DNA of 64,000 nt, from NCBI RefSeq assembly GCF_963921235.1, contig NC_086107.1, positions 104,410,001 through 104,474,000 of the forward strand, read 5' to 3'. The stretch is from Mobula hypostoma. Taxonomy: Eukaryota. Below, piece after piece: positions 1,706 through 10,800 of the stretch; position 1 is the first letter of the stretch; every line of letters begins with the position of its first letter. The notes below the pieces were generated by a model that made no database searches, was not told the DNA's origin, and was given only the letters and a program-made list of their open reading frames with translations. The position numbers and the translations under genes are program-made.

Positions 1706-2699
1706 CTTTTTGCCAGTTTTCCTCTGGCTCTCACTGGTTTCTTGCTTCAGAGTTAGTGCAGGCTGTTCCCCATTGGGGACGTCAGTGTTGAAATACACAC
1801 CAGAGGTCTCTGGCAGCTTAGTGTTAGAGGCTCCTTCCTTCACTTCCTGGTTACTGGATGCCCGGGTGGTAGTGCAAGCCGAGAAGTTCAAAGGGTTAAA
1901 AGGGTCAGTGTTTTGAAAGAACGAGTCCCACAGCTCGTCATTTGCAGATTCTTCAGAATCAAGCTGATCCACAGAAACATCTTCCTCTGCATCGTCCTTG
2001 CAAGTCGGGTCTTGGTGCCCAGTGGATGCTGAAAAATTCAAGGGATTGTAGGGGTCATTTTGAAAAAAGGAGCCCCACAGATCAGTGTCACTTTCATCAT
2101 ATGAGTCGTCATCTTCATCATAAGAGTCGTCATCATCATCATCTGTGGACCAATCACTGGACTGGGCATCATCCATGTTCTCCTCTGAGTCATCGTCCCA
2201 GTCCAGTGACTGTTCATCGTCCCAGTCCAGTGACCGGGTGTTCTCTTCTGTGTCTGGCCAGATCATGGCTAGAATGAGTGGATTTGTACAGCTGAAGTCC
2301 ATTTCACTTGGTCTTTCAAGCCGAGTTTTCATGTGGCAGGGGCTTGCAGTTGGTGATTTCCCTTCAGCCATTGACCCGCTGCCTCCAGAGGGATTGTACT
2401 GGGGAGGTAAACCAGCGCTGGATTGGAGCAGGTGCCGACACTGAAGTCGAACCTCTGTATTCTCCTCGCCCAACATGTCGTTGCCCAGCTGACGACGCAG
2501 TTGCTGGTAAGCGCCTCTCTTCCCCATCAGTTCTGTTAGCCCAAAGCATGTAGGAGAGAACTCAATGAGCAAGAACAGACAGACCTTCAACAGTTTCCAA
2601 CACATCCCAGAGATCCATGGCAGAAGTGGGTTCTTCTCCTGGAAGGGTCCATCGTGGGAAACCATTTTACACACCTCCATGCCAAGGTGCCCAAGATAA
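1706..2699 (-). CDS. PPP1R15A: PPP1R15-family (GADD34/CReP) PP1 regulatory subunit, large coding exon 2
   Basis: Acidic ORF with two LW.SFFQN.DP[YF]NPLNFSA motifs typical of PPP1R15 and a hydrophobic N-terminal segment (LLPWISGMCWKLLKVCLFLL). Acceptor ttttcttccctttgtgttctcAG|2699; phase-0 donor KK AAG|GTAGGA at 1706/1705, just before the expected V-x-F motif. The family call is strong; A versus B rests on the exon layout and stress-type promoter. Confidence 0.85.
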
Positions 2700-2750
2700 C
2701 TGAGAACACAAAGGGAAGAAAATTTTAGTGTACGACAGTGAGAGGCAGTC

Positions 2751-3030
2751 CACACTGGCACGGCTCTACCCATGCCACCACACTGGCACGGCTCTACCCA
2801 TGCCAGCACACTGGCACGGCTCTACCCATGCCACCACACTGGCACGGCTCTACCCATGCCACCACACTGGCACGGCTCTACCCATGCCACCACACTGGCA
2901 CGGCTCTACCCATGCCACCACACTGGCACGGCTCTACCCATGCCACCACACTGGCACGGCTCTACCCATGTCACCACACTGGCACGGCTCTACTCATGCC
3001 ACCACACTGGCACGGCTCTACCCATGCCAC
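2751..3030. repeat. 28-bp minisatellite x10 in PPP1R15 intron 1
   Basis: CACACTGGCACGGCTCTACCCATGCCAC repeated 10 times nearly perfectly. Confidence 0.97.
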
Positions 3031-3109
3031 CAATCCCACCCCGGACAGGTCCCCGTGGCCCAAGCCCACTCAGTCTCCCCCACCCACACCGTGAAGGCCT
3101 CCCGCGTAC

Positions 3110-3186
3110 CTGCTGCTATGGTCAGCCTCCGTCCAGTGGCCTACGCCCATTGCGAGTGTCTCTGATCTCACAGTGCTTCCGCCCAT
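3110..3186 (-). CDS. PPP1R15A: PPP1R15 putative coding part of exon 1 (MGGSTVRSETLAMGVGHWTEADHSS..)
   Basis: ATG at 3186 in strong context (acgATGg). The 77 nt to donor CAG|GTACGC (3110/3109) splice in frame to exon 2 (AG+T=Ser, then YLGHLGMEV). Alternative in-frame ATGs at 3150 and 2680. Confidence 0.6.
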
Positions 3187-3232
3187 CGTCTCTCGCTCTC
3201 TCGGTGCCGGGACCTGTCCGTCGGGGTTTCAT
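3122..3232 (-). other. uORF2 (36 aa MKPRRTGPG...PLDGG*), overlapping the exon-1 main ATG out of frame
   Basis: Manual translation: ATG 3232 to TGA ending at 3122. Confidence 0.7.
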
Positions 3233-3235
3233 ACT

Positions 3236-3262
3236 CTATCTTCTCTGTTCTGTGTCAGCCAT
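3236..3262 (-). other. uORF1 (MADTEQRR*)
   Basis: ATG 3262 to TAG ending at 3236, about 5 nt from the inferred TSS (3267). Confidence 0.6.
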
Positions 3263-3460
3263 TTGATGACGAGAGCGGCCGCGGCGTCCGCTTATATAGC
3301 AGCGCACTGACGTAATCCGCGGAGGAGTTAGCCAATTAGCGGCGGCGCCAGTTTCCTTACGTCACCCGCGCACGTCGTCAATCGGAACCAGCCCGGTCTG
3401 GAAATGCCGGGGCGCCGCTGGCGAGTGGCCGCTTTGCGCTGGCGGGAGGGCAGGTAATGC
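3262..3460 (-). promoter_or_regulatory. PPP1R15 CpG-rich promoter: TATA, CCAAT, paired CRE/ATF sites
   Basis: TATATAAG (minus) at 3298-3291; Inr-like TCATC about 31 nt downstream; TGACGTAA 3308-3315; CCAAT 3332-3336; TTACGTCA 3357-3364; CGTCA 3376-3380; dense CpG. Confidence 0.85.
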
Positions 3461-3502
3461 TGAGGAAGCAGGGGGCCTGCAAATGCTTACACAGAGTAAG
3501 AG

Positions 3503-4222
3503 AATAGAACATAGAATAGTACAGTACAGGCCCTTCGGCCCACAATATTGTGCCGACCCTCAAACCCTGCCTCCCATATAAGCCCCCACCTTAGATTCCT
3601 CCATATACCTGTCTAGTAGTCTCTTAAACTTCACTAGTGTATCTGCCTCCACCACTGACTCAGGCAGTGCATTCCACGCACCAACCACTCTCTGAGTAAA
3701 AAACCTTCCTCTAATATCCCCCTTGAACTTCCCACCCCTTAGCTTAAAGCCATGTCCTCTTGTATTGAGCAGTGGTGCCCTGGGGAAGAGGCACTGGCTA
3801 TCCACTCTATCTATTCCTCTTATTATCTTGTACACCCCTATCATGTCTCCTGTCATCCTCCTTCTCTCCAAAGAGTAAAGCCCTAGCTCCCTTAATCTCT
3901 GATCATAATGCATACTTTCTAAACCAGGCAGCATGCTGGTAAATCTCCTCTGTACCCTTTCCAATGCTTCCACATCCTTCCTATAGTGAGGTGACCAGAA
4001 CTGGACACAGTACTCCAAGTGTGGCCTAACCAGAGTTTTATAGAGCTGCATCATTACATCGTGACTCTTAAACTCTATCCCTTGACTTATAAAAGCTAAC
4101 ATCCCATAAGCTTTCTTAACTACCCTATCCACCTGTGAGGCAACTTTCAGGGATCTGTGGACATGTACCCCGAGATCCCTCTGCTCCTCCACACTACCAA
4201 ATATCCTGCCATTTACTTTGTA
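3503..4222 (-). mobile_element. Young 5'-truncated CR1 LINE
   Basis: ORF 3560-4231 with LVRPHLEYCVQFWSP and FFTQRVVGAWNALP; near-identical to the copy at 10560-11095; tctatgttcta-type tail. Confidence 0.95.
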
Positions 4223-5186
4223 AATGGGCAAAGGGGTAGATTCAGGAAAGTATCTGGCCCTGCGCCTTGGTGGAAGGAATAAAGGCGTAGACTATTTTTC
4301 TAAATGGGGCAATTTCAGAAATTAGATCGTCATGTGCAAAAGGACTGTGCGGGATTCCCTAAAGGTTAACTTGCAGGCTGAGCAGGTGGTAAGGCAGGTG
4401 AATGCAATGTTGGCATTCATTTCAAGAGGACTAGAATATGAATGCAAGGATGTGAACCCGAGGCTTTACTGGTCAGACCACACTTGACGTAATGTGTATA
4501 TATATATTCTCTCTCTCCTTTTTCTCCCTCTGTCTCTCTCACTATACCCCTTGCCCATCCTCTGGGTTTCCCCCCTCTCCCCCTTTCTTTCTCCCTAGGC
4601 CTCCCTCCCATCCCCTGATCCTCTCATATCCCTTTTGCCAATCACCTGTCCAGCTCTTGGCTCCATCCCTCCCCCTCCTGTCTTCTCCTATCATTTTGGA
4701 TCTCCCCCTCCCCCTCCCACTTTCAAATCTCTTACTAACTCTTCCTTCAGTTAGTCCTGACAGAGGGTCTCGGCCCGAAACGCCGATTGTACCCCTTCCT
4801 AGAGATGCTGCCTGGCCTGCTGCGTTCACCAGCAACTTTTATGTGTGTTGCTTGAAGTTCCAGCATCTGTAGATTTCCTCGTGTTGACTTAATGTGAACG
4901 GTTTGGGCTCCAAGTCTAAGGATGTGCTGTCTTTGGAAAGGGAGATTTACGAAAATGATCCCAGGGATGAAAGGGTGAACAAGTGTTTAATGGTTCTAGC
5001 CCTGTGCTCACTGGAGTTTAGAAGAATGATGGGGGATATCACCGAACCCTAATGGATCTTGAAAGGACGAGATAGAGCCGATGTCGAGAGGATGTTTCCA
5101 AAAGTGGGACAATCTAGATAGGACCAGGGAGTACGGTCTCCAAATAGAAGGATGCCCCTTTACTAAGTCATTGGGTATATTTAAAT
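4223..5186 (+). mobile_element. Old CR1 fragment interrupted by a Penelope 3' tail (~4497-4885)
   Basis: Decayed CR1 ORF2 on both sides; the insert matches the reverse complement of 9202-9560. Confidence 0.8.
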
Positions 5187-7859: not shown

Positions 7860-10800
7860 ATAGGGAAGCAAGAAAGGAGCTTAAGAAGGGGCTGAGAAGA
7901 GCAAGAAGGGGGCATGAGAAGGCCTTGGTGAGTAGGGTAAAGGAAAACCCCAAGGCATTCTTCAATTATGTGAAGAAAAAAAAGATGACAGGAGTGAAGG
8001 TAGGACCAATTAGAGATAAAGGTGGGAAGATGTGCCTGGAGGCTGTGGAAGTGAGCGAGGTCCTCAATGAATACTTCTCTTCGGTATTCACCAATGAGAG
8101 GGAACTTGATGATGGTGAGGACAATATGAGTGAGGTTGATGTTCTGGAGCATGTTGATATTAAGGGAGAGGAGGTGTTGGAGTTGTTAAAATACATTAGG
8201 ATGGTTAAGTCCCTGGGGCCTGAACGGAATATTCCCCAGGCTGCTCCACAAGGCGAGGGAGGAGATTGCTGAGCCTCTGGCTAGGATCTTTATGTCCTCG
8301 TTGTCCACGGGAATGGTACCGGAGGATTGGAGGGAGGCGAATGTTGTCCCTTTGTTCAAAAAAGTTAGTAGGGATAGTCCGGGTAATTAAAGACCAGTGA
8401 GCCTTGCGTCTGTGGTGGGAAGGCTGTTGGAAAAGATTCTTAGAGATAGGATCTATGGGCATTTAGAGAATCATGGTCTGATCAGGGACAGTCAGCATGG
8501 CTTTGTCAAGGGCAGATCATGTCTAACAAGCCTAATAGAGTTCTTTGGGGAGGTGACCAGGCATATAGATGAGTGTAGTGCAGTGGATGTGATCTATATA
8601 GATTTTAGTAAGGCATTTGACAAGGTTCCACATGGTAGGCTTATTCAGAAAGTCAGAAGGCATGGGGTCCAGGGAAGTTTGGTCAGGTGGATTCAGAATT
8701 GGCTTGCCTGCAGAAGGCAGAGGGTGGTGGTGGAGGGAGTACATTCAGATTGGAGGATTGTAACTAGTGGTGTCCCACAAGGATCTGTTCTGGGACCTCT
8801 ACTTTTCGTGATTTTTATTAATGACCTGGATGTGGGGGTAGAAGGCTGGGTTGGCAAGTTTGCAGAGGACACAAAGGTTGGTGGTGTTGTAGATAGTGTA
8901 GAGGATTGTCGAGACATTGATAGGATGCAGAAGTGGGCTGAGAAGTGGCAGATGGAGTTCAACCCGGAGAAGTGTGAGGTGGTACACTTTGGAAGGACAA
9001 ACTCCAAGGCAGAGTACAAAGTAAATGGCAGGATACTTGGTAGTGTGGAGGAGCAGAGGGATCTGGGGGTACATGTCCACAGATCCCTGAAAGTTGCCTC
9101 ACAGGTGGATAGGGTAGTTAAGAAAGCTTATGGGGTGTTAGCTTTCATAAGTCAAGGGATAGAGTTTAAGAGTTGCAATGTAATGATGCAGCTCTATAAA
9201 AGCAACACACACCAAAGTTGCTGGTGAACGCAGCAGGCCAGGCAGCATCTCTAGGAAGAGGTACAGTCGATGTTTCAGGCCAAGACTGTTCGTCAGGACT
9301 AACTGAAGGAAGAGTTAGTAAGAGATTTGAAAGTGTGAGGGGGAGGGGGAGATCTAAAATGATAGGAGAAGACAGGAGGGGGAGGGATGGAGCCAAGAGC
9401 TGGACAGGCAATTGGCAAAGGGGATATGAGAGGGTCATGGGACAGGAGGTCCGGGGAGAAAGACAAGGGGGGGGGGGAACCCAGAGGATGGGCAAGGGGT
9501 ATAGTCAGAGGGACAGAGGGAGAAAAAGGAGAGTGAGAGAAAGAATGTGTGTATAAAAATAAATAACGGATGGGGTACGAGGGGGAGGTGGGGCATTAGC
9601 GGAAGTTAGAGAAGTCAATGTTCATGCCATCAGGTTGGAGGCTACCCAGACGGAATATAAGGTGTTGTTCCTCCAACCTGAGTGTGGCTTCATCTTTACA
9701 GTAGAGGAGGCCGTGGATAGACATGTCAGAATGGGAATGGGATGTGGAATTAAAATGTGTGGCCACTGGGAGATCCTGCTTTCTCTGGCGGACAGAGCGT
9801 AGGTGTTCAGCAAAGCGGTCTCCCAGTCTGGGTTGGGTCTCGCCAATATATAGAAGGCCACATCGGGAGCACTGGACGCAGTATATCACCCCAGTCAACT
9901 CACAGGTGAAGTGTCGCCTCACCTGTTTGGGGCCCTGAATGGTGGTAAGGGAGGAAGTGTAAGGGCATGTGTAGCACTTGTTCCGCTTACAAGGATAAGT
10001 GCCAGGAGGGAGATCAGTGGGGAGGGATGGGGGGGAACGAATGGGCAAGGGAGTCGCATAGGGAGCAATCCCTGCGGAAAGCTGGGGGGGGGAAGGGAAA
10101 GATGTGCTTAGTGGTGGGATCCCATTGGAGGTGGTGGAAGTTACGGAGAATAATATGTTGGACCCGGAGGCTGGTGGGGTGGTAGGTGAGGACCAAGGGA
10201 ACCCTATTCCTCGTGGGGTGGCGGGAGGATGGAGTGAGAGCAGATGTATGTGAAATGGGGGAGATGCGTTTGAGAGCAAAGCTGATAGTGGAGAAAGGGA
10301 AGCCCCTTTCTTTAAAAAAGGAGGACATCTCCCTTGTCCTGGAATGAAAAGCCTCATCCTGAGAGCAGATGCGGTGGAGACGGAGGAATTGTGAGAAGGG
10401 GATGGCATTTTTGCAAGAGACAGGGGGAGAAGAGGAATAGTCCAGATAGCTGTGAGAGTCAGTAGGCTTATAGTAGACATTAGTAGATAAGCTGTCTCCA
10501 GAGACAGAGACAGAAAGATCTAGAAAGGGGAGGGAGGTGTCGGAAAAAGCTCTATAAAACTCTGGTTAGGCCACACTTGAAGTACTGTGTCCAGTTCTAG
10601 TCACCTCACTTTAGGAAGGATGTGGAAGTATTGGAAAGGGTACAGAGGAGATTTACCAGGATGCTGCCTGGTTTAGAGAGTATACATTATGATCAGAGAT
10701 TAAGAGAGCTAGGGCTTTACTCTTTGGAGAGAAGGAGGATGAGAGGAGACATGATAGAGGTGTACAAGATATTAAGAGGAATAGATAGAGTGGATAGCCA

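Follow-up and report, generated by a model that had tools for sequence, protein, structure and literature searches.

How might the translation of a GADD34-like gene be controlled when its likely start codon lies inside one of its own upstream open reading frames (uORFs)? The question is raised by a PPP1R15 gene on the minus strand of a 64,000 nt stretch of Mobula hypostoma DNA (NC_086107.1, positions 104,410,001 to 104,474,000), hereafter the window, whose coordinates are used throughout. The control of GADD34 through uORFs completes the feedback loop of the integrated stress response, and the bypass of a lone uORF under stress is a still-open question on which the ray leader bears. The original prediction, made from the sequence alone, had described an ATF4-like leader with two uORFs, the second overlapping the main start.

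The leader and the beginning of the coding region are laid out as follows.

3110..3267, minus strand: exon 1, with a predicted 5' end; 3110-3244 is covered by a spliced contig
3236..3262, minus strand: uORF1, putative in the mRNA, 8 codons (MADTEQRR-stop), with C at −3 and G at +4 and its ATG 5 nt from the predicted cap
3122..3232, minus strand: uORF2, 36 codons, A at −3, A at +4, out of frame, spanning the ATGs at 3186 and 3150
3184..3186, minus strand: in-frame ATG, strong context, annotated start of the protein P0001; no difference listed in 4/4 runs
3148..3150, minus strand: second in-frame ATG, strong context; Met in 7/7 batoid rows, ACG in run X16
2700..3109, minus strand: intron 1, GT-AG, with a 28-nt minisatellite of about 10 copies at 2750-3032
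1706..2699, minus strand: exon 2, coding; the VRF of KVRF comes right after its end, in exon 3, which lies outside the window
2678..2680, minus strand: third in-frame ATG, level with the point where two shark proteins are annotated to start; hardnose skates have Val here
2663..2665, minus strand: fourth in-frame ATG, strong context; Met in 7/7 batoid and 1/2 shark rows
2564..2617, minus strand: hydrophobic segment (P0001 residues 54-71), located past each of the four starts

Read on the minus strand, every coordinate predicted for the uORFs, ATGs and splice sites proved right; uORF2 does cross 3186 and 3150 out of frame, with the in-frame ATG at 2680 further down, and the ATG at 2665 had been overlooked. 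The two uORFs share one frame and are separated by a single stop, with a gap of 3 nt between the uORF1 stop and the uORF2 ATG, and each of the four main-frame ATGs (3186, 3150, 2680 and 2665) combines a −3 purine with a +4 G. In the spliced mRNA, 49, 85 and 145 nt lie between the uORF1 stop and 3186, 3150 and 2680, respectively, while the uORF2 stop is followed after 31 and 46 nt by 2680 and 2665. The C-terminal end of uORF2 reads RRPLDGG-stop, without a Pro-Pro-Gly-stop. By analogy with the membrane helix of PPP1R15 (described in PMC10743859), the hydrophobic segment is likely the counterpart of this membrane-targeting element.

When the 81 nt before 3186 were submitted to 5000 dinucleotide shuffles, an out-of-frame ORF overlapping that ATG appeared in 51.5% of them, and a uORF followed by an overlapping out-of-frame ORF in 7.6%. 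The layout by itself is thus only weakly beyond chance; the case leans on the gene family and on the relatives. A comparison of the leader fold with shuffles revealed no stable structure (z 0.88; 166/200 shuffles as good), and a Pfam scan of the uORF2 peptide gave no match.

Regarding the gene family, exon 2 matches at 100% the M. hypostoma RefSeq protein XP_062918834.1 (P0001), which is named PPP1R15B-like and annotated to start at 3186. P0001 has the C-terminal PP1-binding domain PF10488 (67.4 bits against a cut-off of 26.1). We rejected a PPP1R15B identity on four features of the protein: its motif is KKVRF (KVRF, not KVTF), located in exon 3 and so outside the window; its best PDB match is human PPP1R15A (E 2e-14 versus 4e-11 for 15B); the CReP_N domain (PF10472) is absent, as in 4/4 chondrichthyan proteins scanned, P0001 among them; and it falls outside the CReP clade. 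The tree comprised 42 C-terminal stretches under a midpoint root (43 rows picked from 67 stored proteins, less P0059, in which the anchor motif was missing; P0038 and P0039 were cut at an earlier motif). In this set, which is devoid of true shark or ray PPP1R15B and of full-length mammalian proteins, the CReP rows group apart at 100/99, and the 17 chondrichthyan rows stand beside the reptile PPP1R15A rows. The motif, Pfam and tree results bear out the PPP1R15/GADD34-like identity first proposed, and the gene is likely the GADD34 (PPP1R15A) orthologue of the ray.

Many shark and ray proteins, and some from teleosts, that bear the name PPP1R15B or 15B-like (P0001-P0011, P0024-P0033 and P0036) have KVRF and fall outside the CReP clade; they are likely misnamed PPP1R15A. 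By this evidence, the RefSeq name PPP1R15B-like seems wrong for this shark and ray gene group. Intron 2 splits the PP1-binding KVRF motif at window position 1706, and the exon-2 frame reads on for 60 codons into that intron; a skate record (P0020) ends with an unspliced tail of the intron-2 type, which would lack KVRF. A metagenome scan returned 2 loci out of 93 candidates. One (L002) is a bird-like PPP1R15B fragment without a leader, probably host DNA, and the other is a distant AT-rich relative; neither was of help for the leader.

Upstream of exon 1 we observed the following elements.

3291..3298, minus strand: TATA box, predicting a start near 3267
3308..3315, plus strand: second ATF/CRE-like octamer, 10 nt upstream of the TATA box, putative function
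3357..3364, minus strand: ATF/CRE-like octamer, putative upstream promoter site

The start near 3267 was predicted from the TATA-to-start distance. The window contains 4 ATF/CRE-like octamers where 0.64 are expected, and the CpG observed/expected ratio reaches 1.0-1.4 over 3101-3500, compared with 0.42 for the window. By motif, the TATA box, the two octamers and the CpG-rich patch mark a putative promoter. An open frame at 3560-4291 on the minus strand, which we take by resemblance to be LINE-like and for which no Pfam match was found, ends about 290 nt above the predicted start and leaves a very short CpG-rich promoter.

Transcript evidence came from 4 of 18 listed runs, which we aligned to 3040-3480, all of them as contigs guessed but not recorded as RNA. 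The X4 contig covers 3110-3244 with 0 differences and then continues into exon 2, as the X16 contig does from 3110; those of X9 and X11 align from 3122, with loose ends that enter exon 2 without a shift. Congruently, P0001 (100% identical) reads across the 3110-to-2699 junction from 3186, and the sequence has a GT donor after 3110 and an AG acceptor before 2699. The predicted junction was thereby confirmed by the transcript-like contigs, in which the loose ends of X4 and X16 are the start of exon 2, and by P0001. The uORF2 ATG is present in a spliced contig (X4).

The 5' end of the transcript is where a first alternative arises. None of the contigs (0/4) reaches the uORF1 ATG at 3262, and contigs cannot reveal a start; those of X16 and X11, from two studies, both end at a place that aligns by hand with 3250, that of X4 ends at 3244 and that of X9 at 3224. 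These ends are a weak hint that transcription starts between 3262 and 3232, leaving uORF1 outside the mRNA and a single overlapping uORF in it. We hold this to be unlikely, if by no means negligible, given the TATA box at 3298, from which a start near 3267 is predicted, and given that assembled contigs commonly end short of the cap. In 3/3 organisms covered, the uORF1 frame is closed by a stop at roughly one position, which also speaks for uORF1, though weakly, as an ATG followed by A gives a stop in one frame anyway. A start below uORF1 would be compatible with the bypass of uORF2 that we favor below.

Next, we compared the window leader with those of X16 and X11 by reading the alignment tables by hand; X9 stops at 3224 and is uninformative on the uORF2 start. 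In both, the position of the window uORF2 ATG (3232) reads GTG, and two codons before it stands an in-frame ATG that has A at −3 (M-N-V-K-P and M-I-V-K-P), with no gaps downstream. The uORF2 frame is kept, via this different ATG, in 2/2 relatives whose contigs reach its start, its stop sitting in a zone with unlisted differences (1/5 unlisted in X16, 2/4 in X9 and 3/6 in X11). The X11 organism shares 0.05 of its words with the window, versus 0.24 for the X16 organism, and since it is the more distant of the two the window state is likely derived: a one-base insertion likely destroyed the old uORF2 ATG and created the uORF1 stop, and the uORF2 frame acquired another ATG. The 2/2 relatives and this one apparent turnover provide modest evidence that uORF2 is kept. 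In both relatives the stop that closes the uORF1 frame shares bases with the uORF2 ATG, so that no gap is left; by this comparison the 3-nt gap is local to the window and the common trait is that there is no room between the uORFs. In X16, at the equivalent of 3228-3232, a start codon followed by an immediate stop lies out of frame, nested in the first uORF2 codons. Of the five listed run differences, 3/5 alter the uORF2 peptide (2/5 silent) and 4/5 the main-frame extension (1/5 silent), and they carry no information on selection for either frame.

At the protein level we used an alignment (A1) of 9 rows, from 7 batoids (rays, skates, sawfish and electric ray, in four orders) and 2 sharks; annotated N-termini are longest-frame calls, so the Met pattern of the batoids is partly ascertained. 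A Met at the 3150 level is present in 7/7 batoid and 0/2 shark rows, and the frame from it is open across the junction in 7/7 batoid rows. Asp/Glu occupies residue 22 in 7/7 batoid rows, and a kept uORF2 stop requires Asp/Glu there. Met at the 2665 level is found in 7/7 batoid and 1/2 shark rows. The annotated start falls at the 3186 level in four batoid rows and at the 2680 level in both shark rows. Column 1 of A1 also has a Met of P0005, which we discarded as a homologue of 3186, since it is an alignment artefact across an 18-residue gap. What is likely new here is the in-frame Met inside uORF2 in rays and skates, so that uORF2 overlaps the likely main start. Our search, which missed most subscription papers, found no published account of the GADD34 leader in sharks or rays.

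The shark starts are also what would be expected if the ray had an ordinary GADD34 leader, in which the working start is in exon 2 (2680/2665), the exon-1 ATGs are minor or an annotation effect, and no uORF overlaps the real start. We consider this improbable. Under the scanning model, upstream ATGs in strong context capture most scanning ribosomes, and the two in-frame ATGs of exon 1 should do so; moreover, ATG 3186 shows no difference in 4/4 runs, the frame from the 3150-level Met is open in all the batoid rows, and the 2680-level Met is lost in hardnose skates. On the other hand, ATG 3150 is lost in X16, 4/5 of the listed differences alter the extension, and the human PPP1R15A uORFs do not overlap the coding frame or its start (PMC11510332, preprint 10.64898/2026.08.25.746704).

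In our best reading, to which we assign a probability of about 0.6, the leader would act by GADD34-type leaky bypass of one inhibitory overlapping frame, uORF2. The two-uORF GADD34 leader (Lee 2009, Young 2015) is known to us as described in PMC5720466, PMC9971878, PMC11510332 and PMC5666893; in mammals uORF1 is often bypassed, and uORF2 is inhibitory and passed under stress (PMC5720466, PMC11510332, PMC9971878). The ray shares with it the gene, by motif, Pfam and tree, and the two uORFs, the first (putative in the mRNA) weak and in poor context and the second longer and in better context. The two uORFs abut or overlap, uORF1 ending where uORF2 begins, and in mouse the GADD34 uORFs likewise overlap each other (PMC5666893). 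In contrast to mammalian GADD34, uORF2 of the ray overlaps the likely main start out of frame, and would end before the coding start only if that start were 2680/2665; it has 36 codons, it lacks the Pro-Pro-Gly-stop that blocks restart at the end of the mammalian uORF2 (PMC9971878), and it is accompanied by four in-frame ATGs. Drosophila dPPP1R15 is likewise a PPP1R15 gene under uORF control, which makes such control old in animals, but has seven uORFs by that paper's count (PMC6070289, PMC10743859).

The label ATF4-like did not hold. Delayed reinitiation of the ATF4 type would have uORF1 translated and ribosomes restarting at uORF2 at rest and missing it under stress, and the ray does have the ATF4 outline, a short uORF and then a longer out-of-frame uORF over the main start, provided this is 3186/3150 (Lu et al. 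2004, PMC2172506). However, the gap is 3 nt in the ray versus 87 nt in mouse ATF4, and when the ATF4 gap was cut from 87 to 3 nt basal output went up and induction was nearly eliminated (PMC2172506). In X16 and X11 there is no gap at all, and the uORF1 of the ray is weak, cap-proximal and possibly not transcribed, unlike the efficiently translated one of ATF4; the ray also keeps in-frame starts downstream of the uORF2 stop (PMC2172506). We therefore regard this mechanism as very improbable, in agreement with the caveat of the original prediction that with a 3-nt gap the mechanism would differ from that of ATF4; the uORF pair is the known GADD34 pair. The ray leader lacks the ATF4 spacing and fits a GADD34-type bypass with the overlap in place of the stall motif.

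Under the GADD34-type bypass, uORF1 would either be missing from the mRNA or be passed over by most ribosomes, having C at −3 and lying 5 nt from the predicted cap; initiation is less frequent at uORFs close to the cap (preprint 10.1101/2025.07.28.667205). Those few ribosomes that translate uORF1 to its end would be unable to restart 3 nt later and would pass uORF2. At rest, uORF2 would take most ribosomes, which would terminate 63 and 27 nt past 3186 and 3150; these would be lost to the long protein, with little restart at 2680/2665, while those that got past uORF2 would supply a basal level of protein by starting at 3186 or 3150, 49 and 85 nt after the uORF1 stop. Upon eIF2-alpha phosphorylation under stress, more ribosomes would bypass the uORF2 ATG and start 45 nt on at 3186, which, judging from mammals, would raise the amount of the long form. 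As to its history, the main start may have shifted from exon 2 to exon 1 in the ancestor of rays and skates, a shift that would have turned the old uORF2 into an overlapping frame; the overlap would now block restart, as Pro-Pro-Gly-stop does in mammals. The leader is likely a known kind of control element with one twist, a likely main start inside uORF2 in rays. This extends the two-uORF GADD34 leader to a cartilaginous fish, with an effect limited to one fish lineage and no new mechanism needed, and without Pro-Pro-Gly-stop the ray leader offers a natural test of whether the stall motif serves induction or only repression.

Single overlapping frames have kept some stress induction (PMC2172506, preprint 10.64898/2026.08.25.746704). 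In the latter source, however, the presence of a uORF or overlapping frame predicts induction poorly, most are not inducible, and those that are seem to need an inhibitory 3' element. The leader of DCP2 and other single overlapping-ORF leaders resemble that of the ray in that the overlapping frame is passable only by leaky scanning, but DCP2 needs a conserved stalling 3' end (preprint 10.64898/2026.08.25.746704). In uORF2 of the ray no inhibitory 3' element was found among the features inspected: it has no Pro-Pro-Gly end and no stable fold, and its peptide tolerates changes. This result counts against the bypass reading, as do the ACG at 3150 in X16, the different leader of the hardnose skates, and the occurrence of the layout in 7.6% of the shuffles.

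Another arrangement would make the leader a C/EBP-like isoform switch: at rest, ribosomes would restart at 2680/2665 after uORF2 and produce a short form, and bypass under stress would yield a long form from 3186/3150, the forms differing in location or stability. The two strong ATGs 31 and 46 nt after the uORF2 stop would serve such restarts, and the 2665-level Met is kept beside the exon-1 Met in 7/7 batoid rows, although a kept internal Met needs no second start. CEBPA and CEBPB are precedents (PMC11109482), with in-frame downstream starts and a uORF stop 7 and 4 nt before the next ATG that makes it unreachable, compared with 3 nt in the ray. Yet in the ray reinitiation would follow 36 codons, where the C/EBP uORFs have 6 and 12, and lengthening the CEBPA uORF to 30 nt lowered its short form by 40% (PMC11109482). 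The ray forms would differ by 12-37 residues that include no hydrophobic segment and no known domain, and all of them keep the hydrophobic segment 54-71. In sawfish (21/26 vs 66/125) and stingrays (23/26 vs about 102/128), exon-1 residues are conserved better than residues 33-160, but this greater similarity among close relatives may stem from constraint on the leader RNA, and the N-terminal extension is poorly kept in skates (4/14) and electric ray (5/14), with a length that differs between orders. Besides, 2680 is no special rescue start, as it aligns with the annotated start of two shark rows, and hardnose skates carry Val at that level in 14/15 rows (15 of 47 members listed). On balance we deem an isoform switch doubtful.

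The same 15 listed members of the 47 in the hardnose-skate cluster show an in-frame Met 26-32 codons above the 3150-level Met in 13/15 rows, and because of this Met further up their leader differs, as read from the proteins, from that of the window. Part of their extension resembles the window uORF2 frame (RHDGH vs RDDGR), which suggests that the uORF2 region was fused to the protein in hardnose skates. We rejected the idea that the skate N-terminal Met stands in exact register with the start of uORF2, since the distance of this Met varies over 26-32 codons with a dipeptide repeat. This repeat, Ala-Ser/Ala-Leu, is variable in the extension of P0005 and P0010-P0023 and changes in two-residue steps between records.

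A bolder and rather improbable view is that the ray and skate GADD34 start invaded its own inhibitory uORF, the leader being a stress switch between a short basal subunit (exon-2 restart) and an N-terminally extended stress form that lineages keep rewiring. If this were true, the rewirings would comprise the loss and regain of the uORF2 start in devil rays, the loss of the second start in another ray, and the apparent hardnose-skate fusion, and together they would form a natural series for how a uORF becomes coding sequence.

Finally, we looked at other features of the window. Both introns of the gene carry minisatellites, that of intron 2 at 17-686 with a 40-nt unit in about 16 copies. The long window frames scanned are repeat-derived, 4/6 with Pfam matches. 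A 307-codon frame at 9599-10519 on the minus strand gave a weak GIY-YIG match (E 0.00086) and is likely a piece of a Penelope-type retroelement.
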